Source: a virus
Virus record (IMG/VR): IMGVR_UViG_3300010035_000001
Span: 6,615 to 70,614 of that record
Strand: one strand, 5' to 3'
Length of the DNA stretch: 64,000 nucleotides
Shown: positions 1,146-57,548 of the stretch, piece by piece
Layout: every line of letters begins with the position of its first letter
Numbering within the stretch: the stretch's first letter is position 1
Notes under the pieces: model-generated
What the model saw: the letters and a program-made list of their open reading frames with translations, nothing else
Databases searched by the model: none
What the model was told of the DNA's origin: nothing
Position numbers and translations under genes: made by a program

Positions 1146-1174
1146 ACCATACACCATTTTGGAGGGTTTGAAAA
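1146..1174 (-). promoter_or_regulatory. putative sigma70-type promoter P1 with spacer palindrome variant CTCCAAAATGGTG
   Basis: TTTTCA-17 nt-TATGGT in the 1126-1183 intergenic gap; weak -35. Confidence 0.4.
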
Positions 1175-1183
1175 GAGAAAAGA

Positions 1184-2005
1184 TCAAAAATTCGTGATCA
1201 GTACCTCTCCGACCTTTCCACGCTTTTTGGTGTTACTGTTCACCCCACGTCCCACCCGAACAGTACTGATCAAAAATTTGGAATACCTGTTATGGATCCA
1301 TTCAGTATCGGAATTCGACAAAATCCATCTGACTTCTCGATCATGCAACTTCTCCAACGTAACAGCCAACCGCTCCTGATCATCCATACTAAATCCATCC
1401 GGCGTATAAGCCGTGAAATTCGCAGTAGCAGTCAATGGAACATAAGGTGGATCCAAATAAACCAAATCGCCTGAACCAGCGGATTTAATCGCCCTTTGAA
1501 AATCCTCCACAGACAAAGCTACATCCCACATCCGAAGGAGGGTATTCACAGCCAACAAATTTTCCCGATCACAAATCAAAGGGTTCTTATGCCGCCCAAA
1601 CGGAACATTGAACTTTCCCTTGGAATTCACTCGATACATCCCGTTGAAGCCAGTTTTGTTCAAATAGATCATCCGAGCGGCAACTACATCGTCCGGAAGG
1701 CCTTCAAGGTCCAACGCCCGTTCTGCCAAATAGAAATCCTTGTCATACGGCATTTTCTCCAACCGGAGAATCACCCTTTGCACAAACACCTGCAACGTCT
1801 TCCAGGTGACAATCAGCTCACGATTCATGTCGGATAGGTAACATCGTCTGGGTGCAATTCCATTCCGATACATCCCAAAGAAAACAGCCCCACCTCCCAA
1901 AAATGGCTCGTAATAGTCTCGAACAGAACCAATCAATGGGAGGATCGAATCCAACGATCGGCCTTTCCCCCCTACCCACTTCAAGAAAGGTCTAGGATTT
2001 TTCAT
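1184..2005 (-). CDS. dam: Dam-like DNA adenine methyltransferase (D12 class, alpha group)
   Basis: FLKWVGGK, YYEPFLGGGAVFF (motif I), YLNKTGFNGMYRVNSKGKFNVPFG, LVYLDPPY (motif IV), WILSNS; start placed at MKNPRPF. Confidence 0.93.
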   Translation of the reverse strand: MKNPRPFLKWVGGKGRSLDSILPLIGSVRDYYEPFLGGGAVFFGMYRNGIAPRRCYLSDMNRELIVTWKTLQVFVQRVILRLEKMPYDKDFYLAERALDLEGLPDDVVAARMIYLNKTGFNGMYRVNSKGKFNVPFGRHKNPLICDRENLLAVNTLLRMWDVALSVEDFQRAIKSAGSGDLVYLDPPYVPLTATANFTAYTPDGFSMDDQERLAVTLEKLHDREVRWILSNSDTEWIHNRYSKFLISTVRVGRGVNSNTKKRGKVGEVLITNF

Positions 2006-2147
2006 TCTTGTCCCGATTTCTCTTTCGGCCATAGATTGACCTTGGTTTTTGTTCGACAACAGGCTGGTAAACCACTTTCGCGGCGCAGTAACAAATCAAA
2101 CTACCTTGAGGAAAACAATGAATGGTGATCTCAGTCCCATCTATCAC
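1992..2147 (-). CDS. small hypothetical protein (51 aa)
   Basis: GTG after TAAGGAG SD; fills the gap between the two methyltransferases and overlaps the dam start. Confidence 0.45.
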   Translation of the reverse strand: MIDGTEITIHCFPQGSLICYCAAKVVYQPVVEQKPRSIYGRKRNRDKNEKS

Positions 2148-2163
2148 GGCTTGGTAGCACTCC

Positions 2164-2916
2164 TTAGGTTTTCGCGGTGGTTGATATCTTCCTCCCAAAA
2201 CGGGCCTCCATCACAGCTATGGCCTGCGGATTGGTATCAACCAAGACACACCGACGACTGTGTTTCAGCGCCGCTGCCCCAAACGTACCAGAGCCCGCAA
2301 AACAGTCCAACAAACGATCCCCCGTATACGAATGCACCTTTACAATCCGCTCCAACACCCCCAATGGCTTTTGAGTCGGATATCCCGTCTTCTCCTTACC
2401 ATTAGTTGGGACGATTGTATGCCACCAACAATCTGTAGGTGTCTTGCCCCGAGCCACCTTTTCGGCTGACACCAAACCCGGCGCCATGTAAGGAATCCGA
2501 TCCATCTGATCAAAGTTGAACGTGTATTTCTTGGGGTGTTTGGAATACCAAAAAATCATGTCGTGCTTCCGAGACCACCTTTTCGTAGCCCGACCACCAA
2601 AGTCATAGGCCCAGATAATCTGATTTTGGAAGCAATTCCTACCAAAAACACCATCCAGAGCCACCTTGGCGTAGTGCCCTTCACGCTCATCCATATGCAG
2701 AAAAAGCGATCCATGGGGTCTCAACAACCGGTGGCCTTCCTGCAAGAAAGGCAACAACCATTCTTGGTAATCTTCCCGATCATCCTCATAGGACAATTCA
2801 CCACGTTGCCGCGTCTTTCGGGTATTGAATGGTGGATCAAAATAGAGCAGATCAAAAAACTCACCCTCATGGGCTTTCATCCACTCCAGACCATCCGCAT
2901 GCACGATTTCTAACAT
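2164..2916 (-). CDS. beta-class N4-cytosine/N6-adenine DNA methyltransferase (orphan)
   Basis: DLLYFDPPFN (motif IV) before YPTQKPLGVLERIV and LLDCFAGSGT (motif I), which is the beta-group order. Confidence 0.92.
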   Translation of the reverse strand: MLEIVHADGLEWMKAHEGEFFDLLYFDPPFNTRKTRQRGELSYEDDREDYQEWLLPFLQEGHRLLRPHGSLFLHMDEREGHYAKVALDGVFGRNCFQNQIIWAYDFGGRATKRWSRKHDMIFWYSKHPKKYTFNFDQMDRIPYMAPGLVSAEKVARGKTPTDCWWHTIVPTNGKEKTGYPTQKPLGVLERIVKVHSYTGDRLLDCFAGSGTFGAAALKHSRRCVLVDTNPQAIAVMEARFGRKISTTAKT

Positions 2917-3140
2917 TCAACCCAATCCTGATTTACCCACCAAGGATCAAAAAGTAATTCACCATACCGATTGTCAAAGTAGGCCATCTTGTGGCGCCCG
3001 ACATGACGACAGAAGGTGTCCGCAAAGAATCGAATACCAACATAAGCTTCCGCCACCGAAAACCCTTTTTGACGCAACCGAATCACTTCCAAGGCCAATG
3101 CTCTGGAGACTTCCTCAACTGTTGTGGCCGGATTTTTCAT
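2910..3140 (-). CDS. hypothetical protein (76 aa)
   Basis: ATGA overlap with the endolysin stop; 3' overlap with the MTase start. Confidence 0.6.
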   Translation of the reverse strand: MKNPATTVEEVSRALALEVIRLRQKGFSVAEAYVGIRFFADTFCRHVGRHKMAYFDNRYGELLFDPWWVNQDWVEC

Positions 3141-4123
3141 TTTTCTGGAAACCACCTTGCCTGCAACCACCCATGCGACTGCAGACGATTTCGGAGAGCC
3201 ATTGCTGTTCTGGGGCCAACGACCCCATCCACACCGAGGCGCATCATTCTCTGGAAGGTCTTTACAGCCCGTTCAGTCCGCTCCGAATCGACCTCTTGGA
3301 GGAACACAGGGTAACCCAAGAGCAAAAGCCCCAAACGGGCCGTGGTCGGCTCACAGACCCCTTTAACTTTCATCAAATCGTTCTCTACCTGCTTCAAACG
3401 ATTCTCCCCATCGCTGTAGCCTCGCAGAAAAGACCACGTTTGAACAACCGATCGAGCCCCACGCAAGGGACCCCCCTGTTGGATCCGTACAATCCGTCGA
3501 AAATAATCCGCATCAAAAGGATTCTCGACCGCATTCCGCATGAATGTCAGCGGGAACAATGGGCCAGGATCTTTCTTTGATTGCTGAACGGCCGAATGCG
3601 GCAAAATTGTCTCCTGACAAATCTTTGGAAATCGATCCCTCATTTGGATCATCAAATCCCGCACTGTCTCCAACTGACCAACTGGGTACCTCCCCCAGGC
3701 ATGGCCAAGGACCTTCACCCGCCCCGGAGACCAATTCTTTTTGGCCATACCCGGATTGACAATCTCAATACCAAAATGGGTTTTATTCACCGACTTTGAA
3801 CCGGCATGCCAAGCCGACTTCTCCAACGGAACACACTGGACGACGATTGCCGGCAAACCCCGAATCAACGGCAAATCTCCTGCCAACTCCCTGTCTTTGT
3901 CGGTCCAATCATACCCAACCACGAAATGTGCAGACGCCTTGGATTGATATCGTCGGCGCATAAACCAACGAGTAGCCCCCAAGTAGGAATTTCCCCCAGT
4001 GTAATGGAGGATCACCCCATTGGGCTCAAACTCATTGTAAAACCAGGGTGAAGTCCTCTCAGTGATCCCATGTGCCTCAAAAACACGCCCAGAAAAAATC
4101 CGCAACTGATCAAAAAAGTCCAT
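3137..4123 (-). CDS. endolysin: N-acetylmuramoyl-L-alanine amidase (Amidase_2) with C-terminal peptidoglycan-binding domain
   Basis: GVILHYT, SAHFVVG, AWHAG, GIEIVN, ILPHS...KKDPGPLFP zinc amidase motifs; AVKTFQRMMRLGVDGVVGPRT PG-binding motif. Confidence 0.9.
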   Translation of the reverse strand: MDFFDQLRIFSGRVFEAHGITERTSPWFYNEFEPNGVILHYTGGNSYLGATRWFMRRRYQSKASAHFVVGYDWTDKDRELAGDLPLIRGLPAIVVQCVPLEKSAWHAGSKSVNKTHFGIEIVNPGMAKKNWSPGRVKVLGHAWGRYPVGQLETVRDLMIQMRDRFPKICQETILPHSAVQQSKKDPGPLFPLTFMRNAVENPFDADYFRRIVRIQQGGPLRGARSVVQTWSFLRGYSDGENRLKQVENDLMKVKGVCEPTTARLGLLLLGYPVFLQEVDSERTERAVKTFQRMMRLGVDGVVGPRTAMALRNRLQSHGWLQARWFPEK

Positions 4124-4126
4124 CTC

Positions 4127-5131
4127 TCACCCCATCTGCCAAATACAGATTGTTAAAGATCCAGAGTCCAACCGCAATGGGTGGCCTACATCTCCAGTGT
4201 AGCACAGGCGAGTTGAAGACTCAGGAGCATGCTTTAACGCCTCTTGAAGCACCTTCCCATTGATCTGCACCCATCCTTCTTGGTGACCTTGTGCATGATC
4301 CACCTCCACCGACGCTGTGATCACTTTACCCACACCCCCCTCTTCCCACGCACGCAACGTCAACAACCCCTCACCGAATTCAAGCTTGATTATCCCCAAA
4401 GCCGCCAAAGCCGCTGTTTGCCGCACCACTTCAAACAGTTCCTTTGTCGAAAAAAAATAGACAGCCCCGGTGGTATGCTCCGGGATAATCCCATTCGTGT
4501 CCGGAAAACCCACATTGACCAAGGGACTGTATCGGACTTCTTCCTCACCAATGAGAAAAAATCCATATGCCCGATCAAAGTAAGTCCGTACCTTGCCCTT
4601 CGGCCACGTCTTAAACAACTTGGCTGGAATCAATCCCTGCCAACGACCTTTCACCTTGGCTCGCGCCAAACGCCCCTTTGCCAAGGACTCCACATAGTCT
4701 GGATGAAAATGAACCACCCCATAGTCCTCTAACGTTTTCCCAGCCGCATGGGTAGCCGCCTTGACGTTTTGCCACAACACACACTCCTCAAAAAGATCTA
4801 ACGGTGGGATGTTCAAAAAAACACTATACGCATTGACATCCAATCCTTTCAGCAAATAATCCGCTGATTCAGACCGCAAATAGTAATCCCCATACCCGAC
4901 TGGGGTAAATGACAGGCTCCCAGTATCCTTGACCGCAGTCTTGATCACAGTTGCATCAAACAAAGCATTCGGAAGGGTCTCCTCTACGAACACCACCGAA
5001 GTAACGATGCCATCCGACCCACAAACCCAACTGGGACATCCTTCCGCTCCGGGAATCAAACGAAGCAATTTGGCCTCGTCCTTTTTCGTGGGCAATAGTT
5101 TGAGAGCCCGTGCCAAAGCTTTTTTAAGTTC
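4127..5131 (-). CDS. DNA sliding clamp (beta-clamp/DnaN-like), divergent
   Basis: 334 aa, beta-clamp-like size; N-terminus ELKKALARALKLLP; C-terminus QINGKVLQEALKH...LCYTGDVGHPLRL...ICIWQM resembles the DnaN tail. Confidence 0.6.
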   Translation of the reverse strand, partial: ELKKALARALKLLPTKKDEAKLLRLIPGAEGCPSWVCGSDGIVTSVVFVEETLPNALFDATVIKTAVKDTGSLSFTPVGYGDYYLRSESADYLLKGLDVNAYSVFLNIPPLDLFEECVLWQNVKAATHAAGKTLEDYGVVHFHPDYVESLAKGRLARAKVKGRWQGLIPAKLFKTWPKGKVRTYFDRAYGFFLIGEEEVRYSPLVNVGFPDTNGIIPEHTTGAVYFFSTKELFEVVRQTAALAALGIIKLEFGEGLLTLRAWEEGGVGKVITASVEVDHAQGHQEGWVQINGKVLQEALKHAPESSTRLCYTGDVGHPLRLDSGSLTICIWQMG

Positions 5132-5735
5132 CATAGGTCCGCACCCATCCAAAGTCCAACGCCAGACCACGACGCAATGGATCCAACACTGTCTCAGTTA
5201 CCTTGCCTTCCAAAAATTCCAACAAGCGTTTTGTCGCTGTAGGCAACCCTTTTCGTTTGATCCGTTTCATGTAGGTATGATAACACCTGCAACACAAACC
5301 CAAAGCACGATGGGAACGAGTCTCTGTACCACAATTCAAGCAACCGTAGAGACCATGTTTTTTGCACCAATAATCAGACACAAGCCACTTCAGCATTTCC
5401 CGAAATTGTTCATCCGAAATCATATACGACCCAGTGGGACTCGTTTTTTTCCACTTCTGCCCCAGCCCCCCACGAGCACGCAAGAAATGAGACATACTAT
5501 ACCCGGAAATCCGACAGACATCCTGAAGGCTATACGTGCCTCGACTTAAACCACCCGGGCCTACGAGCACCCGTGCTTTAGCGTAAACGGCCGCCCGAGA
5601 TCTGCCCCCCGGGTGGTTGGGCCATTCCGGATAACTGTCCCCTGTATTCCGCTGAAACCACTGAATCCCTGATGTACCCAATCCTTGTAACAAGACATTA
5701 GATTCCTGTTTTGACCACTTCTTACCCTTCCCCAT
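5124..5735 (-). CDS. putative DNA-binding protein (Myb-like HTH, winged HTH, Cys/His zinc finger)
   Basis: KKWSKQE..LL and RSRAAVYAKA; YSLQDVCRISGYS; CLNCG...HRALGLCCRCY. Confidence 0.5.
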   Translation of the reverse strand: MGKGKKWSKQESNVLLQGLGTSGIQWFQRNTGDSYPEWPNHPGGRSRAAVYAKARVLVGPGGLSRGTYSLQDVCRISGYSMSHFLRARGGLGQKWKKTSPTGSYMISDEQFREMLKWLVSDYWCKKHGLYGCLNCGTETRSHRALGLCCRCYHTYMKRIKRKGLPTATKRLLEFLEGKVTETVLDPLRRGLALDFGWVRTYGT

Positions 5736-6423
5736 TGTCTTCTTCCTTTTTTTCTGCTGCAGCGATCCTTGCACGCACCGCAGCTGTCCGATCCCGGGCA
5801 AGCATCAATGCTGCTTTTCGGGATTCATCAAGAGACAATTGGGGTTTCAAATTCGGTCTAGACGTATCCATGTCCCTAGGTACAAGCTCTGTTCCAATAC
5901 CCTGTCTTAACTCATCCAAATGCTTAGACAAGCTCACCAAGGCCCGTAACATTCCCTCTAATGAGTTTGGCTCAATCTTCATCTGGGTAGTCAAAGCCAT
6001 GCTCTTATCAAACAATTCAGTCATGTTCTTTAAAGTCTGAACACGGCCATTCACAATCTGTCGGCCTATCTCCTGTTCAAACTTGGCAGTGAGACCTTGA
6101 AAATACTGTTTCCGTCTCTCTACCCAATTATCTTCAACACACCATTTCTGGAGTGTCGACAAACAAACTCCAAACTCAGGCATCGCCGCTAAATCGCGCA
6201 AACCCAAAGACTCACAACTTGTCCTGTATATGATGCCTGCCTTTTCTCGTAACCAAACTCCCCCTTCATTCCGTTCTGCTTCCTGACAATTACCCAATTT
6301 CTGTTCAATCAATCTCAACTTTGCCTGGGCGGATGTCTCGGTCCGAATGATATCCGGCTTCACGTACGTTGCTTTCAACGTCGTGACCCGGAACAACGGT
6401 GGTCTTTTTTTCCGCCCAGCCAT
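5722..6423 (-). CDS. HTH protein, possible terminase small subunit
   Basis: LRDLAAMPEFGVCLSTLQKWCVEDNWVERRKQY HTH followed by long helical region. Confidence 0.45.
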   Translation of the reverse strand: MAGRKKRPPLFRVTTLKATYVKPDIIRTETSAQAKLRLIEQKLGNCQEAERNEGGVWLREKAGIIYRTSCESLGLRDLAAMPEFGVCLSTLQKWCVEDNWVERRKQYFQGLTAKFEQEIGRQIVNGRVQTLKNMTELFDKSMALTTQMKIEPNSLEGMLRALVSLSKHLDELRQGIGTELVPRDMDTSRPNLKPQLSLDESRKAALMLARDRTAAVRARIAAAEKKEEDNGEG

Positions 6424-6425
6424 TT

Positions 6426-6722
6426 TCAATTCCTCGTGTCGTGCATCCCTTTCAACCGCCTATTCAACTCCACCCTCAAATCAGACCATTCCTCTTGCAT
6501 GATACCCGCATATCGCTGTTCTTCCATAGGGGAAGCATCGTCAAAATCATCCACCTCAAAATTGACACTCAACTTGCCTATCTTATCAACCTTCACATCA
6601 GCGGAGACCTTTTCCAAATCTACATCCAAAGCTTTCGCAATCCGCATGGTCCCGAGTTCAATCATCTCCCTGAGAATCAATTCTCGATTCAACAAAAACA
6701 GACCGTCTTCCATGTCCGTCAT
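6426..6722 (-). CDS. acidic hypothetical protein
   Basis: ORF track; ATGA overlap with ruvC stop. Confidence 0.65.
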   Translation of the reverse strand: MTDMEDGLFLLNRELILREMIELGTMRIAKALDVDLEKVSADVKVDKIGKLSVNFEVDDFDDASPMEEQRYAGIMQEEWSDLRVELNRRLKGMHDTRN

Positions 6723-7357
6723 GATTTAACTCCCGTGTTGGCTTTCCAAAACCATTCTGTTGCAATGATCCCGTGTCCAGCCGCATCCGCAATGTGTTCA
6801 ACCCCCACAACCAAAGACTTGTTTAGAGCAAACGCTAGGCCGTCTACCTCAGCGCAAACCGAATCCTGAATCAAAAATTTTTCACTTTTTCGTGTTTGAA
6901 GAAATCTATTCGCCAAAGACGCAGCTATTGATATCCGAACAAATGCATTCGTAATCCCGGAAAGGCCCACAATACACCCATAAACTGCCATTGCTTTAAT
7001 CGCATCATTCTGTGAACCGACCTTGATTTGATGCCTATTCAGCACGTAAGCCTCCACCCCTATTACTTTTGGTTGGTAGAGCTTAAGTATCTCATCGTAT
7101 TTTCGAGCAATCATTACGTAGCGTCGAAGATCCTCGTCCATCACCCTATGCTTACTGCTTTTCCGAATCTCTTTCATCGGGATGCTTGGCGAAGTCGGGA
7201 TGTAAACTGCCCTGATTATATAAAACTCCCTCTTGGGAGTACAGCCCAAGACAGCAACACCCGTACTAGCAAAGCCAGGATCAACACCAACGACAATGAG
7301 GTCATTTGGTGTTTTCAACCGGCCGCGTAAAACAAGATCTTTTCGATCAATCTTCAT
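6719..7357 (-). CDS. ruvC: RuvC-like Holliday junction resolvase
   Basis: VVGVDPGFASTGVAVL, VIGVEAY, HIADAAGHG catalytic motifs. Confidence 0.88.
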   Translation of the reverse strand: MKIDRKDLVLRGRLKTPNDLIVVGVDPGFASTGVAVLGCTPKREFYIIRAVYIPTSPSIPMKEIRKSSKHRVMDEDLRRYVMIARKYDEILKLYQPKVIGVEAYVLNRHQIKVGSQNDAIKAMAVYGCIVGLSGITNAFVRISIAASLANRFLQTRKSEKFLIQDSVCAEVDGLAFALNKSLVVGVEHIADAAGHGIIATEWFWKANTGVKS

Positions 7358-7763
7358 TGTCCAATGCTTCCAGGGTTTCCACGACCTCGGATCGTTCCAT
7401 CCGAGTGAACTTGCAAAACTCGATATTGGAGGTCACTACCAAAATAGGCTTGGCCAACTTTTTTCCCAACTCCGTTCGAAGTTCCTTCACAAATGAAGTC
7501 GAGGCAGTCACCGGGACACTCACCACCTGGTACCGTCCCAAGGGCTTATCCAACATGTAAGCCCCGGCCTCAATCAATTCCCCCTCTTGATTCTTGGCAA
7601 AGACTTCAATCTTCCAAAAAGTCGATGTCCGCTTTCGTTTCTTCTTCTTTTTCTTCACAAGACCTTTCCGGCGAGCATCATTCTTGGCCCGTACTTCGTT
7701 GTACTTCTCAATCAATTCATCTTCCGTGGAACCCACTTCAGCTGTTTTCGGATTCTGATCCAT
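7347..7763 (-). CDS. hypothetical protein with basic KKKKKKRKR tract
   Basis: GGAGG SD; overlaps neighbours on both sides. Confidence 0.7.
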   Translation of the reverse strand: MDQNPKTAEVGSTEDELIEKYNEVRAKNDARRKGLVKKKKKKRKRTSTFWKIEVFAKNQEGELIEAGAYMLDKPLGRYQVVSVPVTASTSFVKELRTELGKKLAKPILVVTSNIEFCKFTRMERSEVVETLEALDNED

Positions 7764-10648: not shown

Positions 10649-10650
10649 TC

Positions 10651-17402: not shown

Positions 17403-17455
17403 TGATATTCCTTCCAGAAATAAACAACTGTAACAAAACTAAGAACTTCAAAGAA

Positions 17456-17484
17456 TCCGTACACCTAAATGGTGTTTTTGTCAA
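17456..17484 (-). promoter_or_regulatory. sigma70-type promoter P2 with spacer palindrome CACCATTTAGGTG
   Basis: TTGACA-17 nt-TACGGA upstream of the sigma-like/polA operon. Confidence 0.6.
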
Positions 17485-17536: not shown

Positions 17537-17806
17537 CTACAACCGTTCCCGGGCTGTCTTCAACGCTTTCTGGAAAATTTTAGATACCGTGTTCAGGTAT
17601 TCTTCTCTTTTTTTGCTTCGAGGAAGCAAGGGGATCAGCTCAACAAGCAACAACGCACCCGCCAGCGAGTAGAACGCATTCTTGGGGAGTCCAATCCGAT
17701 CACAAACATCATGGATTGGTTCCAGAAATTCTCGCGGAATCCTTACATCGGCCCGCACACGGCCTTTGACTGCACCAAGAATCGAAGTTTTTTGATTTGC
17801 CGTCAT
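17537..17806 (-). CDS. ribbon-helix-helix (CopG/Arc-like) DNA-binding protein, putative
   Basis: RVRADVRIPREFLEPIHDVCDRIGLPKNAFYSLA strand-helix-helix pattern. Confidence 0.6.
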   Translation of the reverse strand: MTANQKTSILGAVKGRVRADVRIPREFLEPIHDVCDRIGLPKNAFYSLAGALLLVELIPLLPRSKKREEYLNTVSKIFQKALKTARERL

Positions 17807-18843
17807 GATGTCTCTCCTACGCTTGCGAACTTGGAAAACTGGGAATATGGTACTGCTTGTTCCAAATACCCCCGTAACGCCTCTCGAGGATACTCACCCG
17901 GATCCCCTTGAGGTAAAAAAACCAAACGAACATCGGGAAAGACCCCGGCCAGCCGCGGCGCATGATTGAACATCTCTTTCCACGCACCAAATGGCTCAGT
18001 CCTGGACGGTCCATCCCACATCAAAATGATCGAACGGACACCCTTTCTTTTCAGCTTCAAAATCTGCAATGGGGAAATGGTTTTCCCGAACGTCGCGACA
18101 GCATCATATCCTACGTGTATCGCATCAATGGGCCCCTCGGTAATCACCACCGTTGGATATTGGCAGGCTATGTCTAAGTTAAACAACACCTCCGTAGCAG
18201 TTGCACATTCCGCCAAATTTGGCGGATTCAGCGTTTTGATATACCGCCCCCAGGTTTGCTGGCTTTCTGACCACATCGCACGCGCCTGAAAATACTTCAG
18301 CTTCTGATCCTCCCAACACGGAAAGATCAACCGGTTTGCATACGTTCCAGACACGCAACCAAACAAACCAAAATGGTGTATATCATCTACTGTTATACCC
18401 CTGGATGCACAGTACGTCAATATGGTGTTTCGATTAAAATCCGATCCCGGGGGCCAGGGAATCTCCGGATGTTCAAAATTCCCTTCAACACTGCCCCAAT
18501 CAGGCGACAATACCTCCGGCAATTCCGCAGTACCCCCAGCCATCCCCCGGGCACCTTGCATCACAATCTGTACTGCACGAAACTTTGTGCACCCCTCCAC
18601 CAACTCAATCAATGCCAGGAGGCCCCCGGCACCCTTCACCGGAACCTTCTTACCAAATTGGTTATAAACGTACTCCTGACAAAAGAAACAATGCCAGGAC
18701 TTCCGCTGCATGTGCACAGCCAATTTCCGTTTACCACAAATCGGGCAGTCCATAATCCATTCGTGGCCTTTGATGTCCTCTCCACCTTGATCAGTCACGT
18801 AGGATTCAAGATCAAATAATTCAATTGCCCGATCTAAATTCAA
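17803..18843 (-). CDS. dnaG: DNA primase (zinc finger + TOPRIM)
   Basis: CPICGK...WHCFFC, RLIFP, VVITEGPIDAI, MWDG, DPG. Confidence 0.9.
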   Translation of the reverse strand: MNLDRAIELFDLESYVTDQGGEDIKGHEWIMDCPICGKRKLAVHMQRKSWHCFFCQEYVYNQFGKKVPVKGAGGLLALIELVEGCTKFRAVQIVMQGARGMAGGTAELPEVLSPDWGSVEGNFEHPEIPWPPGSDFNRNTILTYCASRGITVDDIHHFGLFGCVSGTYANRLIFPCWEDQKLKYFQARAMWSESQQTWGRYIKTLNPPNLAECATATEVLFNLDIACQYPTVVITEGPIDAIHVGYDAVATFGKTISPLQILKLKRKGVRSIILMWDGPSRTEPFGAWKEMFNHAPRLAGVFPDVRLVFLPQGDPGEYPREALRGYLEQAVPYSQFSKFASVGETS

Positions 18844-22530: not shown

Positions 22531-22559
22531 AATGTACGCCATAATGGTGTTTTCGTCAA
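22531..22559 (-). promoter_or_regulatory. sigma70-type promoter P3 with spacer palindrome CACCATTATGGCG
   Basis: TTGACG-17 nt-TACATT upstream of the helicase-primase operon. Confidence 0.7.
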
Positions 22560-22981: not shown

Positions 22982-23314
22982 AGATCTCTCCCAATATGAT
23001 CATAAGATCAATGGTTTTTATTTCTGGAATTAATGGTTTTTTCTTAAGAATTTTCATACTCTTTATTTCTGGAAAAATTCAAGATCATTTCTCACTGATT
23101 TTAAAAAAGCTATAGTAAGAAAGATAGTGATTACTATCTTAAACGCTTGAGAAAGAAAATTTGGAAAATTTATTTTTAACTATTTTATTTCTGGAAGAAC
23201 TAACCCAGTCAAATAAAAGGAAAAACGAGACGAAAAAAAGTTTCAAAAATTTGTTCCAGAAATAAATCTATTTTTCCAGAAAGAAAGAACCCAGAACAGA
23301 ATTTTAAAGGAAAA
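22982..23314. repeat. AT-rich non-coding region with five TTCCAGAAATAAA-type repeats and a perfect hairpin; candidate origin or regulatory hub
   Basis: TTTATTTCTGGAA at 23017, 23062, 23184; TTCCAGAAA(T/G)AAA at 23254, 23274; AAGATAGT-gatt-ACTATCTT at 23121-23140. Confidence 0.7.
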
Positions 23315-50186: not shown

Positions 50187-50208
50187 GGGATAAATCCTCC
50201 GATGATCG

Positions 50209-50661
50209 TTACTTCCGTAATTGATCGTTTACGTATCCCTGCAGTTCCAATTTCAAGCGTCTTTCCAACTCATCTACTTTGTCGATCAAGGCTGGTCGAA
50301 CCCCTCTCAATTCTTCTTTCAGTCCGTCTAATACTGTGAAAACAGCATCCAATCTCATTGCACGTTCTGTTTCCAAAGCCACACTATCCCTGGTAGTCTG
50401 TCTCCATTCCTCTTGCAGTCTAGATAACGTTGCTTCGATTCTGTTGATATCGTGATTTTTCCTTTTCTCACAAGACGCCCTATCCGCGGTAATATCCTCC
50501 ACACTTCGAGTAATGGCTTTGAGTTCAGCTTCGAATTCAACACGGAGTCCGGCAATCATCAGTCTGATTGCGAAGACAATCAAACCGGTAATTGTAGGCA
50601 AAGCAATTCCCAGAGCCCAAAGAACCGTTGACGTGGGAATTCCCATTTCTTGTCCGGCCAT
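50209..50661 (-). CDS. membrane-anchored coiled-coil protein
   Basis: N-terminal TM VLWALGIALPTITGLIVFAI then heptads. Confidence 0.7.
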   Translation of the reverse strand: MAGQEMGIPTSTVLWALGIALPTITGLIVFAIRLMIAGLRVEFEAELKAITRSVEDITADRASCEKRKNHDINRIEATLSRLQEEWRQTTRDSVALETERAMRLDAVFTVLDGLKEELRGVRPALIDKVDELERRLKLELQGYVNDQLRK

Positions 50662-50733
50662 TATCTAACCTCTATTTCTACGCGCCAACCGGTATCGAGC
50701 GTCAAATGATGATTAAAAAAGCGCATCCCAGGT

Positions 50734-51348
50734 TTAGAGATTCACGATTTCGGGATCCTTGTCAGGATCAATCAAGTAAAAATCGATTTCGATAGTTGCG
50801 TTCCCTGCTTCGGCACCAAATGGATTCAGGTCAATTGTCCATGAACCACCTTTTCCGAAAATTTGAGTTGACGGTCTGGGGATGAGATTTGGGCCCAGCC
50901 CCAAAGGAAATTGTCTCTTGGTCGCTACCTGGGTAGCGCCAGTCATGCCATTACCAACACCATCCCATTTGTACACTGTGATACCTGATTCAGCGGTGGA
51001 TTTGCCATTCAAATTCGAAGGTGTAATTTCTGTGTGATTCGCTGTTGGCGCACTTGTAGCTGCTTTGATTGTTGCCAACAAGGGTTTATTGAAAGACGTA
51101 CTTCCACCATTCCAAAAAATGGTAAAAACATTCATGGCCATTAGTTTTGCGGCATTCGTGAATTCGAAGTACAGCATGGTACCACCGGAGGTGGTAACCG
51201 AAAGAAGATTAGTGGTGAACGAAAACGCTTGACCATCCAGACAATATGCCGCTCCGGCTGGAATAGACCGTGATTGCACATTAAGATTCCCACGTGGATC
51301 TACCACCGTAGGATGTTCAATTTTTTTGTACCGTCCGGTGACTTCCAT
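50734..51348 (-). CDS. putative virion structural protein
   Basis: beta-rich protein in the head-neck interval. Confidence 0.6.
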   Translation of the reverse strand: MEVTGRYKKIEHPTVVDPRGNLNVQSRSIPAGAAYCLDGQAFSFTTNLLSVTTSGGTMLYFEFTNAAKLMAMNVFTIFWNGGSTSFNKPLLATIKAATSAPTANHTEITPSNLNGKSTAESGITVYKWDGVGNGMTGATQVATKRQFPLGLGPNLIPRPSTQIFGKGGSWTIDLNPFGAEAGNATIEIDFYLIDPDKDPEIVNL

Positions 51349-51350
51349 TT

Positions 51351-51569
51351 TTACTCCTCCAGTTTTGCTAGATCATCAATATTTCCTTTAAGCCCGGAAA
51401 TAGCTGCAAGATGAACCACTGTTTTTTGCAACAGCTTTCTGATTCTTTGCAATTCTTCTAGAGCCCTGGAATCTTCCATCGCGACCACGTAGCGATCACG
51501 GATATGATAAACGTCAACTGGATTGCCATCCTTATCGAACAAAACGGATACTGGACTTTTGGAACTCAT
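51351..51569 (-). CDS. hypothetical protein
   Basis: ORF track; ATGA overlap. Confidence 0.6.
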   Translation of the reverse strand: MSSKSPVSVLFDKDGNPVDVYHIRDRYVVAMEDSRALEELQRIRKLLQKTVVHLAAISGLKGNIDDLAKLEE

Positions 51570-52096
51570 ATCGTGATTGTCCTTGTTCTTCTATTTTCAA
51601 AAACCAGATTGACGTATGTATAGTCATCAGTCACAGTCACCAGTACTGTTGTCCCGTCCGGATGATACAGTTTCCACACGATCTGTGAGTAGACAACCCC
51701 AGACCAAGTCAAAGTCTTTTCCAGAATTTTCTTGTCATCGTGGGTCCACCAAGTTTGATTTGTGTCAAATACCCCGTCCCATGTAGTGGTTTCGTACGCG
51801 CCTGAAACCGTCCCTTCAGCTGGCCCAGAGTCGATAAAATGGATCAACTGCCGAAGAGCTTTGTGCGTCTCTTCAGTCACGTACTGTCCCTGTATTTCAG
51901 TCAATGTCACTGGGATGGGGTCTTTCCAATTCAACGCCCCAATCATTCGGTTGATTTGGCTCAAAAGAAGATTTTGGAATTCTTGTTGGTCTTCGGCGGT
52001 AGATTCCGCATTTGCAATTTCAGAAGGGGTCTTAGAATCGTCGTAGAGATCCGAGGCACGAACATTCTTCAGGCGAATTCGTTGGGTTGGACTCAC
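51566..52096 (-). CDS. putative virion structural protein
   Basis: ORF track; RQLIHFID.GP.EG motif; GTG start. Confidence 0.65.
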   Translation of the reverse strand: MSPTQRIRLKNVRASDLYDDSKTPSEIANAESTAEDQQEFQNLLLSQINRMIGALNWKDPIPVTLTEIQGQYVTEETHKALRQLIHFIDSGPAEGTVSGAYETTTWDGVFDTNQTWWTHDDKKILEKTLTWSGVVYSQIVWKLYHPDGTTVLVTVTDDYTYVNLVFENRRTRTITI

Positions 52097-52110
52097 GAAA
52101 CACCCCCGAA

Positions 52111-52416
52111 TTAACCTCGCCGCTGGTAGGCAACCAATTCGATGTTGGATGTTCCACCATCACCCTTGATCCAAATGCTTTGGATCTCAGCAGGGCCAGA
52201 CCATCCATGTGGGTTTGCTGCTGCAGCTATAGGAACTTCAATATAGTCTGCATCCGTATCAAAGTTTTCTTGAGTGAAATAAACTTTGGCTGGAAAGGCA
52301 GATGCACGAATTTGAATGAATTTCGTCACAAAGGGAATAGGTAATTCCCTTCCTGCCGTTGTACAGCTTGACCGAATTACATGGGGCCAGCCACCGCGGT
52401 TTTCCATCACACTCAT
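52111..52416 (-). CDS. small beta-sandwich virion/decoration protein
   Basis: ORF track; position after capsid genes. Confidence 0.6.
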   Translation of the reverse strand: MSVMENRGGWPHVIRSSCTTAGRELPIPFVTKFIQIRASAFPAKVYFTQENFDTDADYIEVPIAAAANPHGWSGPAEIQSIWIKGDGGTSNIELVAYQRRG

Positions 52417-52434
52417 GGCGTGGTCCTTTCAGAA

Positions 52435-52758
52435 TTATTCGGTTTGGCCTTCCATGGCTCCGAAAATCAGCAAATCCACAACATCAGAAGCGGCGCCACC
52501 TGCAATTGTGAAACCAGTGAGAGTCTTACTACCGACGGTCAATTGACGCGCCACGGCCGTTTGGTTTGTGGGAAGGACCTGATAGGTCGCATTTTTCATA
52601 TCGGACAAACCCAAGGCTGCAAACGTGGTTGCGTGTGAAGCGCCACTGACCGTCACGGTCGCACCTTGAACGCTGCGGCCAGCCTCGCTACTGGCTAGGA
52701 CATGATCAATTCCCAACTCATTGAGAATCGGATCGTAGTCACTTACTTTCTTGGCCAT
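52435..52758 (-). CDS. putative capsid decoration protein
   Basis: AAGGAGGG SD; small A/G/T-rich protein after the capsid gene. Confidence 0.6.
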   Translation of the reverse strand: MAKKVSDYDPILNELGIDHVLASSEAGRSVQGATVTVSGASHATTFAALGLSDMKNATYQVLPTNQTAVARQLTVGSKTLTGFTIAGGAASDVVDLLIFGAMEGQTE

Positions 52759-52773
52759 TGAATGACCCTCCTT

Positions 52774-53334
52774 TTACTGACCTGGATACATCGCTTTCGT
52801 GATGGCATCCATCAGATCGGATTTGTTCATATTGCCTGTCTTAACGCCGTAGGCTTTGGCCATGGCTACCAGGTAATTCTTGGGCATGGATTCCTGGGGA
52901 TCCGGCCAATCTTCGCCTTCAGCAGGAATCATCCATTTCCCATCATTCCCATTTGCCTTTGGGGCTGCTGGTTCCGCTACGGGCTCGGGTTTTGCCGCGG
53001 GCTCGGGGGCTGGATCCGGTTCCACCTGGGCTTCGATCACGGGTTCAGGCTTGGCCGGAGAATCCGGTTGAATCGGTTCCGGAATTGGCGTTTTAGGTTC
53101 GGGGATCGGCTCGGGTTGTGGAATTGCCACAGGTTGAGCAACAGCAACCGCAGCTTCAACCACTGGCACCTTGGGCATATCCTCAACCACTTTCCATTCA
53201 TCCATCATCGACAGCATTTCGAAATCGCTCAGATCATCAACATCCAGGAAACCATTGACGTCAATCTGATACAGCTTTCCGTTGACGTTCAGTTGTTGGC
53301 CGTGCATAGGGCGTCTTTTGTTTAAGAGTCTCAT
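52774..53334 (-). CDS. protein with Pro/Glu-rich linker and C-terminal Rho-N/HeH-like helical domain
   Basis: PEPIPEPK...PEPAAKPEP linker; KNYLVAMAKAYGVKTGNMNKSDLMDAI. Confidence 0.7.
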   Translation of the reverse strand: MRLLNKRRPMHGQQLNVNGKLYQIDVNGFLDVDDLSDFEMLSMMDEWKVVEDMPKVPVVEAAVAVAQPVAIPQPEPIPEPKTPIPEPIQPDSPAKPEPVIEAQVEPDPAPEPAAKPEPVAEPAAPKANGNDGKWMIPAEGEDWPDPQESMPKNYLVAMAKAYGVKTGNMNKSDLMDAITKAMYPGQ

Positions 53335-53369
53335 GGTTGCGGTCCTCCTGGCTGGTTTGAAAGCAGTAA

Positions 53370-53396
53370 ACAGGAGGGGGTAATACCCCCTCCTGT
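53370..53396 (-). terminator. intrinsic terminator/hairpin after major capsid gene
   Basis: ACAGGAGGGGG-tatta-CCCCCTCCTGT perfect 11-bp stem followed by TTACTGCTTT. Confidence 0.8.
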
Positions 53397-53412
53397 CAAT
53401 GGGACTTACCTA

Positions 53413-54831
53413 TTATGGCGCCCCTACGTAATTGGCCGCCCGGCCGATGTTACGGAACAAAACGTGGCGATTCGGGGCGTACAATTCGGGTACGCAGTAG
53501 ATCAATTGGATCCACCGAATCCGCAGATTGATAACAGCCAAGGGCACTTTCATCATCGGGGCCAGCTGTTTCAGACCCATACCCTGGTTGTTTTGTTGGA
53601 ACAAGAAACCATCAGAAGTGAATGGCAAGTTTGCGTTGAGATCGGTCAACACTTGCTCACCAACACCGGCCGCATTCGGAATGCGATCGATCAAACTCAA
53701 TGCCGTGGCGCCCGGTTTGGACCGATACAATTCGTACCAGTCAACAGCCTGGGCTCCCGCGGGAGTCATGCCGACAGTTGCTTTCTGACCTGCAGCAATG
53801 GCTAGCGCAGCACCCAAAGAAACAACAGCTGACTTGCCATACCGGTTACAGGCTTTGACGGAATAGGTGTAACTACCAGCGTCGCTCGCTGTGAATTGAG
53901 AGGCAGCATCGACAGAAGCTGCCAACGCAGTGGAGATTGTTGGGGTACCCGGAATCTTGGAAGCGTCGCCTTGCGCGGCCGCCACCGGGGCACCACCCAC
54001 CCAAATGAACGGATTGGGTTCGAATTGAACGGGACCGGACTGGCTAACCCATCCACCGATAGTTCGACCCCAACTCACATTGGGTTCATTCGAATGGGTG
54101 TCGTGTCGTTCCTTCGGGAAGAAGGTTTTTGCCAGATCGGCAATCACTTTCGGATTGCAGTGGAAGTTGGTTGCCCGACCATAGTTCGGAGCATCCGAGA
54201 TAGTCAAACACGCATCCTCAAGGACATCTTGGGAGAGAGGTTTGCCGCGCATGTCGATGATGTTGTCGGCGTTGCTGTTGTCCAGGATCATTCGACGGAA
54301 ACCATCAAATTGAAGTGCGGACAGATTGCTATCGCCGTAGAACAAACCTCTTTCCAACATCCGAAGCAGATGCATGGTCCCATTTGCGGTTTCCTGACCG
54401 ATGGCCGGACCGTGGGCCGTGTTGATCAGTGTGGCAGCATGTTTTACAGAACGGGTGGTCGCCAAGAATTTCACCTTGACGTGCACACGCTCGTACGTGC
54501 TGTCGTCTTCTTCGGGAAGGTCTCCATCCTCGATCCAACCCGCATCCGGATTGTTGCCGTAGGCATGCAACCGGTTGTACTCCTCAACCGTGTTGTACGC
54601 TGGCTGTGCGATCAGAGATTTGTAGAGACGAAGATGTTCCATCTCGTACGTGATCACATGCAGCGTGTCTTCCAAGGACTCCATTCGCAGGGCAAACGCA
54701 TCGCCGGGCGTCAAAGACGCCGGGGGATTGACGCTGTCTCCCGCAGTCAGGGCTTTGTTAAGGTCGTCTAGCTCTTCACCAGACATCACCCCAAACCCAT
54801 CAAGATCTTCGTAGTCGCTCATGGTAACCAT
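53413..54831 (-). CDS. major capsid protein (HK97 fold, SPO1/Twort-like)
   Basis: KALTAG...ALRMESLEDTL, PAYNTVEEYN, E.DLPEEDDSTYERV.VKVKFL, LERGLFYGDS, LQFDG. Confidence 0.93.
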   Translation of the reverse strand: MVTMSDYEDLDGFGVMSGEELDDLNKALTAGDSVNPPASLTPGDAFALRMESLEDTLHVITYEMEHLRLYKSLIAQPAYNTVEEYNRLHAYGNNPDAGWIEDGDLPEEDDSTYERVHVKVKFLATTRSVKHAATLINTAHGPAIGQETANGTMHLLRMLERGLFYGDSNLSALQFDGFRRMILDNSNADNIIDMRGKPLSQDVLEDACLTISDAPNYGRATNFHCNPKVIADLAKTFFPKERHDTHSNEPNVSWGRTIGGWVSQSGPVQFEPNPFIWVGGAPVAAAQGDASKIPGTPTISTALAASVDAASQFTASDAGSYTYSVKACNRYGKSAVVSLGAALAIAAGQKATVGMTPAGAQAVDWYELYRSKPGATALSLIDRIPNAAGVGEQVLTDLNANLPFTSDGFLFQQNNQGMGLKQLAPMMKVPLAVINLRIRWIQLIYCVPELYAPNRHVLFRNIGRAANYVGAP

Positions 54832-54887
54832 TTATATTTCCTCCAATTTTCCTTTCATGGAACGATCAAAAAGTTGGGGGTGTGTCC

Positions 54888-55676
54888 CTATTTGCCCGCT
54901 TGAACGATCCGGTTGTACAACCTGCGATCGACGTTTCCAGTTTGTTCGAATTCCCCCATCGCAGCACCAAGGGGGAGACCTTCCGGGGAAAGACCTTGGT
55001 GGCCTTTGTCCACGGAGTCTTTGTGCATAGCCTTCAAGCCAGCTTTGATTTCACTTTTGTTCAGCCGTTCACCCTTGGCCTCCGGCCCGGCCTGTTTCCC
55101 AAAAGATTTTTGGAGCGGTTGCCCCATCTTGGATTTCGGGCCCCTTACCGGTTGTTCCATGTATTCGGCAAAGGATTTCTGCATGTCCAAAACCGTCCGG
55201 CCAACTTCCCCAATGGCCCGAGCCAAGGCCACATTGAAATTGCCCTGTTGAGTTTGATTGCTCTCTACCACAGCAGCCAAATTCCCAAACGACTTGACCA
55301 ATTCACCATGTTGTTCAGCAACAAACTCAGAAATATTGATGGTCTCCTGCACAACCGGATTTTCGGCCATCGACTTCAACAAACTGTCGCTCAACGGCGC
55401 CTCGTCTTCCTCATCGTCTGCCTGACCACCCATGGCCTTGAATAGGTCGGTCTTTTCTTCATCGGTCAGATCCTGGGTTTGGGCCTTTTTCAGGAGAGCT
55501 TGTTTCCGGTCTTCGGAATCGGCCGGAATATTGGCCTCCAGATTCTGGAGAGATTTTTCCAGATCGGAAGTTTCCAACCCGGTGTCCTCTTCATCTCCGC
55601 CCATGTCTTGGTCATGGCCAGTAGGGGCCATGGACTTGTACAGATCCTGGCCATACCCGTTCTTCCTCGTTTTCAT
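54888..55676 (-). CDS. capsid scaffolding protein
   Basis: acidic/helical; between protease and MCP; many L-x-K-S motifs; AGGAGG SD at the revised start. Confidence 0.75.
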   Translation of the reverse strand: MKTRKNGYGQDLYKSMAPTGHDQDMGGDEEDTGLETSDLEKSLQNLEANIPADSEDRKQALLKKAQTQDLTDEEKTDLFKAMGGQADDEEDEAPLSDSLLKSMAENPVVQETINISEFVAEQHGELVKSFGNLAAVVESNQTQQGNFNVALARAIGEVGRTVLDMQKSFAEYMEQPVRGPKSKMGQPLQKSFGKQAGPEAKGERLNKSEIKAGLKAMHKDSVDKGHQGLSPEGLPLGAAMGEFEQTGNVDRRLYNRIVQAGK

Positions 55677-56500
55677 TGATTCGCCTCCTGATTGTTTCCT
55701 GCGTTCTTTTGGATTTGGGTGATTTTGATCAACCGATTGATTTGAGAAATCGTAGCCTGCGGAAGATGGGTTGCGGCCCATGCATAAACTTGGCTTTTGG
55801 TAAGGGTTTTGCTTTTCTTACAAATCTTGCAGCCAGGCTTCCCACAGGAACAAGTTTGGGGATTTTTGACATCAGATTCCAGAGATTGACGAGAAATGAC
55901 GCGACCTGCAGAATCGCCGCTTTGAGGACCGGTAGGCACGGGTACTTCATGACTGGTCCCAAGCGCCTTACCGAATTCCTCTTCCGCAGCCTCCAAAGAT
56001 TTGGCCAACACATCTAATGTCGCATCTCTATGGACCGGACAATGTGTCACAGCCACATCGCGCACCAAAGCTTTCGCAATGGTCTTGCCATTCTTTCCAA
56101 TTCTTTTTTGGATTTTCCCCTCAACAGAAAATCCGAGTTTTCTGGGAGCATCAGTGAGACTGTTGGCCAGTTCCCAAATTTCGTTGGCTCGCTTGGTTCT
56201 AACCATGTTGGCCTCAATCCAATGCCCGGCCGCTTTCGCGATATCTCCAGAAGGCAATTCATCGCCTTTCTGGAAAAATTTGACAGTGTCTGGATAGCCG
56301 ATTCGGGCTCCAGTCCCGCCATCATGGTTATCGTTGATCCAACCCTCATTGATGAATGGCGTGAAATCAAGGCCCCTTTGAAGAATCAACTCCCCTTGCT
56401 GATCTTTGGTTTCCAGAGATGCAATTCCCCCGATTCGACGAGAACCGCCCTTTTCAAAGGGCCGGAGAGGTACGCTGAATCTGAATTCATCTTTTTCCAT
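55673..56500 (-). CDS. prohead maturation protease (HK97/herpes-type)
   Basis: IGGIASLETKDQQGE, INDNH, GFSVEG, VAVTHCPV..AT. Confidence 0.9.
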   Translation of the reverse strand: MEKDEFRFSVPLRPFEKGGSRRIGGIASLETKDQQGELILQRGLDFTPFINEGWINDNHDGGTGARIGYPDTVKFFQKGDELPSGDIAKAAGHWIEANMVRTKRANEIWELANSLTDAPRKLGFSVEGKIQKRIGKNGKTIAKALVRDVAVTHCPVHRDATLDVLAKSLEAAEEEFGKALGTSHEVPVPTGPQSGDSAGRVISRQSLESDVKNPQTCSCGKPGCKICKKSKTLTKSQVYAWAATHLPQATISQINRLIKITQIQKNAGNNQEANQ

Positions 56501-56515
56501 GGTCTCTCCAGAAAC

Positions 56516-56552
56516 AAAAAAAGGGGCAGATCAGCAAGAGCCAATCTGCCCC
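56516..56552 (-). terminator. intrinsic terminator in the leader of the protease-scaffold-capsid operon
   Basis: GGGGCAGAT(TGGC-TCTT-GCTG)ATCTGCCCC followed by T7, 15 nt upstream of the protease ATG. Confidence 0.8.
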
Positions 56553-56594
56553 AATCGGTTGCCTAAAATACAACCCTAGCGGGCTTCTGATTTT

Positions 56595-56623
56595 AGGCTA
56601 GAGATTATTTCTGGAATTGTCAA
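56595..56623 (-). promoter_or_regulatory. sigma70-type promoter with TTCCAGAAATAA in its spacer
   Basis: TTGACA-attccagaaataatctc (17 nt)-TAGCCT. Confidence 0.7.
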
Positions 56624-56629
56624 GCGGGA

Positions 56630-56667
56630 AGAAACAACAAAGGGGTTCCACCGTCGCGGAACCCCTT
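56630..56667 (-). terminator. intrinsic terminator after candidate ncRNA
   Basis: AAGGGGTTCC-gcgacggt-GGAACCCCTT 10-bp stem followed by TGTTGTTTCTT. Confidence 0.8.
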
Positions 56668-56678
56668 GAAAACTATTT

Positions 56679-56845
56679 GCGGACCGTGTCGGCCCATGTA
56701 AAGGTGACACGTTGGCCCGGCTACCTAGGGAGGCCGTTTACCCTTGAGTTTGGGGGCCCTGGCCGCGTCCGGCGCCACCTGTATCATCATGGGACTCAAA
56801 GACACCGCGCCCCATCGACCAAGAGGGTGTGCCCAAAGTCCGCGC
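56679..56845 (-). ncRNA. candidate structured non-coding RNA of unknown family (~167 nt plus terminator)
   Basis: GC-rich intergenic segment; 5' GCGGAC pairs with 3' GUCCGC; internal stems CUUUGAGU/ACUCAAGG, GGCCU/GGGCC, CGUGUC/GACACG, GGGCAC/GUGUCU. Confidence 0.55.
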
Positions 56846-56890
56846 AGTATTAGGATGACACAGGCCAAAACGATCATATCTAAAATCCGA

Positions 56891-57223
56891 TTAAGCAGTC
56901 AGTTGTCTTGGAATTTTGATCCAATTTGGATCGGTTTTTCGACGATGATCCAAAGCATCCTGAATTTGTTCCCAGAAAGGGACCAACAATGCCTGAACCA
57001 TTTCTTGTACCTGAGAATTGGTGATTCCCAATAGATGTTTTTCTGGGAGGCGGATCACATGTCTGAATGTACCAGCAAAACGATGATGAACTTCGATCTT
57101 TACGATACTTTCCAACCGGTGAGACACATGCCCTATTTCGACTATTTCAGCACGAAATTGGAACCTTTTCTTAAGCGCATCACAGACTATTTGGCCAATC
57201 CAAGACATCAGATCGCGCATGTT
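56891..57223 (-). CDS. hypothetical protein (110 aa)
   Basis: GAGAGGCGG SD before ATG 57223. Confidence 0.6.
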   Translation of the reverse strand, partial: NMRDLMSWIGQIVCDALKKRFQFRAEIVEIGHVSHRLESIVKIEVHHRFAGTFRHVIRLPEKHLLGITNSQVQEMVQALLVPFWEQIQDALDHRRKTDPNWIKIPRQLTA

Positions 57224-57277
57224 CGTAAACCGCCTCTCAAGGTACAAGTGGAAGTATGACAATCCCGTACTTGAGAA

Positions 57278-57493
57278 TCAAGCCTTGACCAACCGCACCT
57301 TCAATTCGAACATTTTTCCGGTTCCAGACTTTGACATCTTTTCTTTTTTCGCCAAAGCAGCACCGAGAGACATGCCGTCCGTCAATTGCAAAGGTTTGTT
57401 TTTCTGGTTACGCAAGCTGCCAAACACTGCGAAATCCATGTTGGTCTCCGGGAGCGGTTTCGAAATCTGAGCCAGCTTTACTTGATAGGTCAT
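57278..57493 (-). CDS. small basic hypothetical protein
   Basis: GGAGGG SD; first gene after promoter P4. Confidence 0.7.
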   Translation of the reverse strand: MTYQVKLAQISKPLPETNMDFAVFGSLRNQKNKPLQLTDGMSLGAALAKKEKMSKSGTGKMFELKVRLVKA

Positions 57494-57519
57494 GGGTTCC
57501 CTCCACGCGTTATAGAGAT

Positions 57520-57548
57520 ACAGTACACCATTATGGTGGGTCTGTCAA
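57520..57548 (-). promoter_or_regulatory. sigma70-type promoter P4 with perfect spacer palindrome CACCATAATGGTG
   Basis: TTGACA-17 nt-TACTGT. Confidence 0.75.

Follow-up and report, generated by a model that had tools for sequence, protein, structure and literature searches.

Whether promoters scattered over the genome of an uncultured phage answer to a single regulator, and which protein that would be, is the question raised by a 64,000-nt stretch of viral DNA (IMG/VR record IMGVR_UViG_3300010035_000001, positions 6,615 to 70,614; hereafter the window). The window is part of a 110-kb contig, and one relative of this phage is marine. An earlier reading of the letters, here called the original prediction, described four promoters (P1 to P4) that share a palindrome at one fixed place between the -35 and -10 boxes, took them for one operator-controlled early or middle regulon, and named a ribbon-helix-helix (RHH) protein of 89 amino acids (aa) as the autoregulatory candidate. 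Our follow-up points to a circuit that we consider likely: an autoregulated RHH repressor that would damp the early and replication promoters read by the host sigma70 RNA polymerase.

Four promoters share a palindrome beside the -10 box

The four 13-mers are present as described, on the minus strand, each ending right before the TA of a -10 hexamer. The 17-nt spacing holds at all four promoters, and P2, P3 and P4 carry a TTGACA or TTGACG -35 (Table 1). A more fitting description of the site is a 17-19-bp inverted repeat, (G)TACACCA-N3-TGGTGTA(C), with the right arm overlapping the -10 box. A plain 3-mismatch search is not above chance (20 sites compared with 16.8 expected), unlike the tests that take the register into account. 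Among the eight TTGAC-N18-TA sites in the window, three share the spacer and three are palindromic (motif-blind null p=0.00024 and p=0.0012, respectively). When matrices were built without the -35 box and with one site left out, the held-out sites ranked 1, 1, 4 and 4 among ~128,000 positions. The pattern CACCA-N3-TGGYG-TA occurs 6 times with at most one mismatch, compared with 0.37 expected, and an out-of-sample site in the same genome, TTGACA-ggta-CACCAATCTGGTG-TACCTA, scores 19.0, compared with a maximum of 17.0 over 100 shuffles. The palindrome is very probably a real protein-binding site.

The units headed by these promoters largely correspond to the original prediction. P3 heads the helicase/primase operon as proposed, with genes for an SF2 helicase, a 221-aa protein, DnaB, primase and RHH downstream; an operator-bearing promoter lies upstream of the helicase operon in G006/G010 as well (relatives and other loci are cited by G and L numbers). 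P2 precedes the expected order of sigma-like, DUF2924, polA, SSB-like, RecA and SbcCD-like genes, although the sigma label comes from Atlas alone. In a close TARA relative the P2 -10 reads TATGGA or TATGTA, and the -35 and palindrome are kept. P1 does head an open reading frame (ORF) resembling NDT, but this ORF has no Pfam match, and the unit, which opens with a 118-aa ORF, runs on into the terminase large subunit gene (terL) beyond the window. The two small ORFs behind P4 have no counterpart in the relatives tested, and the noncoding RNA also assigned to this unit has no Rfam match; Rfam and tRNA scans of the window returned no matches.

Table 1. Positions in the window of the promoters, operator-like sites and genes discussed in the text
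Feature	Position	Strand	Details
P1	1146..1174	-	-35 TTTTCA (weak, 4/6); operator CTCCAAAATGGTG at 1152-1164; -10 TATGGT
Sigma70/ECF-like protein, 151 aa	16947..17402	-	first gene under P2; Atlas features 0.96, sigma70 r4 clusters
P2	17456..17484	-	-35 TTGACA; operator CACCATTTAGGTG at 17462-17474; -10 TACGGA (weak, without -7 T)
RHH protein, 89 aa	17537..17806	-	ribbon triad R18-D20-R22; extra C-terminal helix; proposed repressor
DNA primase gene	17803..18843	-	contains an internal promoter and two operator-like sites
Operator-like site CACCATTTTGGTT	18366..18378		strand not assigned; starts 13 nt below the internal -10 (about +7 to +19); 5th best position weight matrix match
Primase-internal promoter	18392..18427	-	TTGACG-17-TATAAC; -35 overlapped by operator-like CACCATATTGACG (18415-18427)
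P3	22531..22559	-	-35 TTGACG; operator CACCATTATGGCG at 22537-22549; -10 TACATT
P4	57520..57548	-	-35 TTGACA; perfect operator CACCATAATGGTG at 57526-57538; -10 TACTGT
P5	57606..57634	+	-35 TTTACC; hybrid site CTCCAAAGTGCCG at 57616-57628 with family-type right arm, same register; -10 TATATC

Further sites lie within the primase gene and beyond the window

We extended the matrix scan past the four sites, covering the window together with 6.6 kb before its start and 6.8 kb past its end. The next two matches lie on either side of a promoter within the primase gene that is directed toward the RHH gene, 586 nt farther down. The match below the -10 box of this promoter occurs only in the window and in the close relative L021. 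A hybrid site is found at P5, which heads two divergent ORFs; as a weaker match, P5 is a less certain member of the regulon. Within the 6.6 kb beyond the window start lies the out-of-sample site given above, a perfect GTACACCA-N3-TGGTGTAC in a TTGACA promoter, along with two weaker sites that lie 2 nt off register. The 6.8 kb past the opposite end, which hold head genes, yielded no operator site. The regulon would thus be larger than four, with at least 7-8 sites, and would include the terL unit, which an operator-bearing promoter precedes in G003 and G008 too. The small ORFs under P4, P5 and the out-of-window P6 gave no family matches.

Arms change together across a phage family while the register is kept

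This phage has no close cultured kin (cultured-phage primase matches reach at most 27%), and a viral scan with a single sequence returned distant helicases only. The family was gathered via an alignment of helicase homologues, which retrieved ~30 loci. Its members are ~110-kb phages with a common gene order: SF2 helicase, 221-aa gene, DnaB, primase, RHH, sigma-like gene, DUF2924 and polA. Searches of 21 family records, 9 of them at least 90% complete, gave no tyrosine or serine integrase, and those of 11 family genomes no S24 peptidase. The combination that marks a lambdoid CI/Cro switch (an XRE helix-turn-helix (HTH) protein with S24, integrase and a divergent OR region) was not found in the family genomes searched. 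ParA is present in just 1 of 11 genomes, on which ground a phage-plasmid reading was rejected. One family record is classed as a provirus by IMG/VR. Family contigs within Myxococcales and Latescibacterota metagenome-assembled genome (MAG) 'chromosomes' were also considered as prophages and set aside: the capsid and helicase genes are 0.3 and 1.8 Mb from each other there, which makes these contigs poor prophage evidence.

A palindrome in this register is kept by most of the ~22 relatives examined; the copy number is often 3-6, and the arms differ by lineage. The promoter that directly follows the RHH gene contains such a palindrome in most relatives, with both arms altered in concert (e.g. CGGC/GCCG or CAGC/GCTG). 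Counted over promoter-like sites in 22 genomes, palindromes are most frequent in this register, with 25 compared with 2-11 at offsets of up to 3 nt. The CGGCA-N3-TGCCG variant is found in G001, G002, G003, G007 and G008, GGGCA-N3-TGCCY in G006 and G010, AGGC arms in G005, and CACCA-N3-TGGTG in this phage only. The lineage variants are multi-copy, giving 3-9 strand matches against shuffle means of at most 0.63.

The primase-internal site follows the same pattern and carries each phage's own operator variant. The CACC arm of the window comes from T-I-L-T-Y in place of the primase peptide G-I-L-P-Y of the family. Since the primase codons can yield part of the internal palindrome by themselves, it is the switch of the arm, and not the mere presence of a palindrome, that counts as evidence.

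The same operator stands at several dispersed promoters in the window and in relatives. The conserved register, the co-varying arms and the out-of-window site favour one operator-controlled regulon, as originally predicted; the qualifier 'early or middle' is approximate, because the regulon includes the terL unit.

Other features of the relatives touch on these sites. Upstream of the helicase in L102 (9750-9830 approx.) there are three tandem palindromes of the GCACCA(A/T)ATGGTGC type, an even-centred look-alike of the window operator; the operator of L102 itself is of the GGGC type, and its tandem palindromes are possibly iterons. A gene that by eye resembles ADP-ribosylglycohydrolase stands behind an operator-bearing promoter in the GGGC lineage (G006:99574 and G010:74810). 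Cassettes of a MoxR/CbbQ-like AAA ATPase and a large partner lie between P2 and the sigma-like gene in L084 (16025-18860), L085 (15494-18801) and L105 (15043-18372), and inserted cassette genes in L084 and L086 have their own operator-bearing promoters.

The RHH protein is the probable reader

The fold assignment of the 89-aa protein is borne out by profile, model and alignment, which give it the N-terminal ribbon of alternating polar and hydrophobic residues, two helices and glycine turn of the MetJ/Arc/CopG superfamily. The family profile matches CopG (E=1.3e-5) and MazE6, G39 is near-invariant in the alignment, and the structure model has helices at 25-38 and 42-60 plus a C-terminal helix. 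CopG and Arc were the nearest sensible folds in a fold search (TM 0.6-0.7 by target, with weak Foldseek E>0.5), and the Atlas RHH score is 0.94. The protein does not fall among the DUF1778/TacA antitoxins: 1 of 23 members matches (TacA1, E=0.049), and its neighbours are primase and sigma-like genes, with no GNAT toxin. The family ribbon is K-x-D-x-R, and that of the window is R-x-D-x-R.

An RHH gene is present in every operator-bearing locus that covers its position, and it is missing from G011 (complete) and L087, both of which are without operators. L102 and L111 had also appeared to be RHH-less, until a hidden Markov model recovered divergent copies. The internal site is paired at 4 or more of 5 positions in 10 of 12 loci with K/R-x-D/T-x-R ribbons and in 0 of 13 others, a count that is not phylogeny-corrected. 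The crystallised operator of KacA, an RHH protein considered below, has a core equal to that of the phage family, and the ribbon triads are similar. We conclude that the 89-aa RHH protein is probably the reader of the palindrome.

An operator also stands at the promoters that, at the sequence level, serve the RHH gene itself, namely P3 and the primase-internal promoter, both upstream of it in the same operon. The autoregulation proposed for RHH would more probably run through these two promoters than through the adjacent P2, located downstream of the RHH gene.

Several observations weigh against this reading. The family G-x-L-P-Y codons account for part of the internal palindrome. The two loci without RHH differ in more than this gene, other conserved genes being absent from G011 and the sigma-like gene from L087, so that their absences do not single out RHH. 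On a DnaB-primase tree the comparison reduces to just 4 independent pairs, which all agree (sign test p=0.125). CGG./GCCG is retained at P2 in L088 and L114, with K-x-T-x-T ribbons, and in L107, with R-x-E-x-R, and it is because of these exceptions that we put the assignment no higher than probable. The window triad is identical to that of KacA, yet the window arms are GTACAC and not GTACGG; the K-to-R change of the window ribbon falls at the position that in KacA reads the changed base, but KacA has arginine there together with the other base, from which no simple recognition code follows. Unrelated mqsRA and cI/cro (XRE) loci have this spacer palindrome at their head too, a terL unit within the regulon sits poorly with a pure early shut-off, and the analysis covered all but ~28 kb of the phage's own genome.

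Other readers and other roles

An unlikely possibility is that the operator is real and is read by another phage protein, such as an XRE/Cro-type HTH encoded in the remaining 28 kb or the product of the conserved DUF2924, 98-aa or 221-aa gene. Inverted repeats of the 7-N3-7 form also suit HTH dimers, a CACC-W5-GGTG spacer heads mqsRA and cI/cro loci, and the covariation of ribbon and operator has the exceptions given above. E. coli MqsA, for instance, binds AACCT-N3-AGGTT (PMC4894380). The distribution of the candidates speaks against them, however. G008 (complete, 6 sites) and G002 carry the regulon without an XRE HTH, an S24 peptidase or an integrase, and G003 and G008 have no additional HTH gene in common. 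A 225-aa HTH is missing from operator-bearing G006/G010, a 235-aa HTH and the 221-aa protein persist in operator-free G011, and L087 keeps DUF2924 without an operator. In viral contigs, a permuted-arm control is as common as the spacer pattern itself (9 vs 6).

The last comparison comes from a wider search, in which 59 unrelated loci with the same spacer had been considered as evidence for a shared factor. They were rejected as such: permuted-arm and register-shift controls gave 9 and 5 viral matches against 6, and with control patterns equally frequent, the unrelated spacer matches are background. Among unrelated loci, DUF1778 antitoxin operons show CGGCA-N3-TGCCG (ribbon R-x-E-x-R) or CACCA-N3-(T/A)GGYG (R-x-N-x-R) in the same promoter register (L204, L206, L210, L211, L213 and L223; L030, L041 and L057). 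Given the equally frequent controls, we treat the DUF1778 loci with CGGC arms as a lead only.

Instead of a repressor site, the palindrome could be a positive determinant, marking a middle-promoter class read by the sigma-like protein, or weak promoters activated by RHH or another phage protein. This we judge still less probable. It would accommodate the fixed register beside the -10 box, the weak P1 -35 and P2 -10, a sigma-like gene that is family-wide and co-lost with the operator in L087, and the benefit of later expression for the terL unit. The dyad symmetry, however, and the off-register and reversed sites do not fit sigma recognition; sites that lie over a -35, at +7 and shifted by 2 nt are unlike an element read by sigma. 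P2 must moreover be read before the sigma-like protein exists, and most family promoters have good sigma70 boxes. Promoters of the MerR type have a spacer of 19 nt (19-20), unlike the 17-nt spacers here. As for the 151-aa sigma-like protein itself, no Pfam or PHROG match was obtained, counterparts judged by eye lie ahead of the DUF2924 gene in most relatives, and it may be considered a candidate later-stage activator.

It is very improbable that a host transcription factor (LexA-like or another global regulator) reads the site and couples the phage early genes to host state. Similar promoters do occur in many unrelated bacterial and phage loci. The arms, however, change by phage lineage, the controls place the unrelated matches in the background, and a degenerate pattern found no match in the 21.6 Mb of five MAGs that contain contigs of the family, though these MAGs may not be true hosts. 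The operator is not known to match any LexA box. Chance, promoter duplication, or an RNA or DNA hairpin without a protein reader is equally improbable: the motif definition is post hoc, P2 and P3 are alike in their flanks too, and primase codons can create part of the internal site, but the motif-blind nulls (p<=0.0012), the out-of-sample site, arm mismatches that do not preserve pairing (CTCC/GGTG, CACC/GGCG) and the genome-wide switch of arm sequence in several lineages all stand against it.

A proposed circuit and its known counterparts

For the RHH protein acting at these operators, repression is the highly likely effect. Upon entry, host sigma70 RNA polymerase would fire P1-P5 and further TTGAC-17-TA promoters, judging by promoter shape. 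From the observed gene order, the helicase-primase-RHH operon and the primase-internal promoter would make RHH, which would then accumulate. By analogy with KacA, two RHH dimers may bind the two arms of the inverted repeat, covering about -29 to -10. Bound RHH would block sigma70 and damp the replication, recombination, sigma-like, terL-unit and lineage-specific early genes as well as RHH itself. Early expression would in this way limit itself to a burst, in a phage family that lacks integrase and CI. Such a switch could either time the lytic programme or maintain a non-integrated carrier state, and the terL unit together with the weak P1 and P2 boxes may leave room for activation at some sites. 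In its most far-reaching form, one RHH would act as master timer or carrier-state repressor over replication, recombination, the sigma-like activator and terL, fed by a promoter-operator inside the primase coding sequence, with operator shifts forcing primase residue changes; we regard this full version as doubtful.

The logic of this circuit would be as in Reg576, and similar to that of F55 and Aca14. Reg576 of Bacillus pumilus plasmid p576 is an autoregulating RHH repressor with a shared operator at dispersed strong promoters, bound by two dimers per operator, and it allows transient expression after entry into a new cell (PMC6294495, PMC8708921). The phage circuit, as read from its sequence, would likewise have an RHH repressor on a mobile element, one operator at dispersed promoters, and autoregulation. 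In contrast, the Reg576 site is a direct repeat of two heptamers, TTATCCC-nn-TTATCCC, placed ahead of the -35 or beyond +1, whereas the phage site is a spacer inverted repeat overlapping the -10, and its targets include replication, recombination and terL genes.

The operator core of KacA is TACGG-N7-CCGTA, read by R8/D10/R12 of two RHH dimers (PMC6698736; PDB 5ZGN). The GTACGG-N7-CCGTAC site of KacA/AtaR (DUF1778), with its AT-rich centre, equals the phage family consensus core, and the triads are alike (R-x-D-x-R and K/R-x-D-x-R). KacA differs in that it needs a GNAT toxin bridging the dimers and controls one operon, whereas the phage encodes no toxin partner; the window arms are GTACAC, and the phage family is not DUF1778.

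F55 of Sulfolobus virus SSV1 is an RHH protein as well. This viral repressor has sites in several early promoters and in its own promoter (PMC9608457). Unlike the phage here, F55 works at archaeal promoters, on 11-nt repeated sites, in a temperate virus that integrates and is UV-inducible. Arc and Mnt (P22) control one antirepressor promoter in a CI-based temperate phage. Like these two and Aca14, the protein described here would be a phage RHH repressor at sigma70 promoters, and Arc was among the near structures in the fold search. Aca14 represses two operons (PMC13551039). These are anti-defence operons, whereas the present phage has ~6-8 genome-wide sites in a family without CI or integrase.

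Neighbouring features

A second motif, TTCCAGAA/TTCTGGAA, occurs in 30 copies in the 64 kb (3143-62906), at promoters and within genes. It clusters at 23022-23274 and 57557-57590, with further copies at 17412, 17568 and 56609. Its density varies widely across the family, with 141 copies in G002, 135 in G008 and 1-2 in G009, G011 and G016; it could be a nucleoid-type or origin-binding site. One copy occupies the spacer of a TTGACA-17-TAGCCT promoter before the prohead protease gene (56594-56623), in place of an RHH operator. Upstream of the helicase operon, an AT-rich 333-nt gap (22982-23314) holds 5-6 TTCCAGAA copies and GATC sites, and relatives have AT- or GATC-rich tracts at the matching position; this gap is a candidate origin of replication.

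Two neighbouring DNA methyltransferase genes (D12-type and N6/N4-type; 1184-2916) close the long P2 transcript region just ahead of P1. The 235-aa HTH protein (5722-6429) has a weak terminase small subunit match (PF10668, E=5e-4) and sits in the recombination operon, several genes upstream of terL.

Implications for the phage family

The circuit type is familiar, since RHH operator regulons of mobile elements are established, and the gain is descriptive and not conceptual. The family-wide tracing and the operator-promoter within primase lift it modestly. A promoter-operator embedded in primase, with residues that change as the operator drifts, would be a case of dual coding. If the RHH reading is correct, the arm variants of the family form a natural series for the RHH ribbon recognition code, and the matched RHH/operator variants (CACC, CGGC, GGGC and AGGC) suit tests of RHH sequence recognition. 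The operator would also mark genes co-expressed from host-sigma70 promoters, among them small lineage-specific ORFs with candidate roles in host take-over or anti-defence. The circuit would be the first concrete regulatory one for this large family of uncultured phages, whose members occur in many metagenomes.

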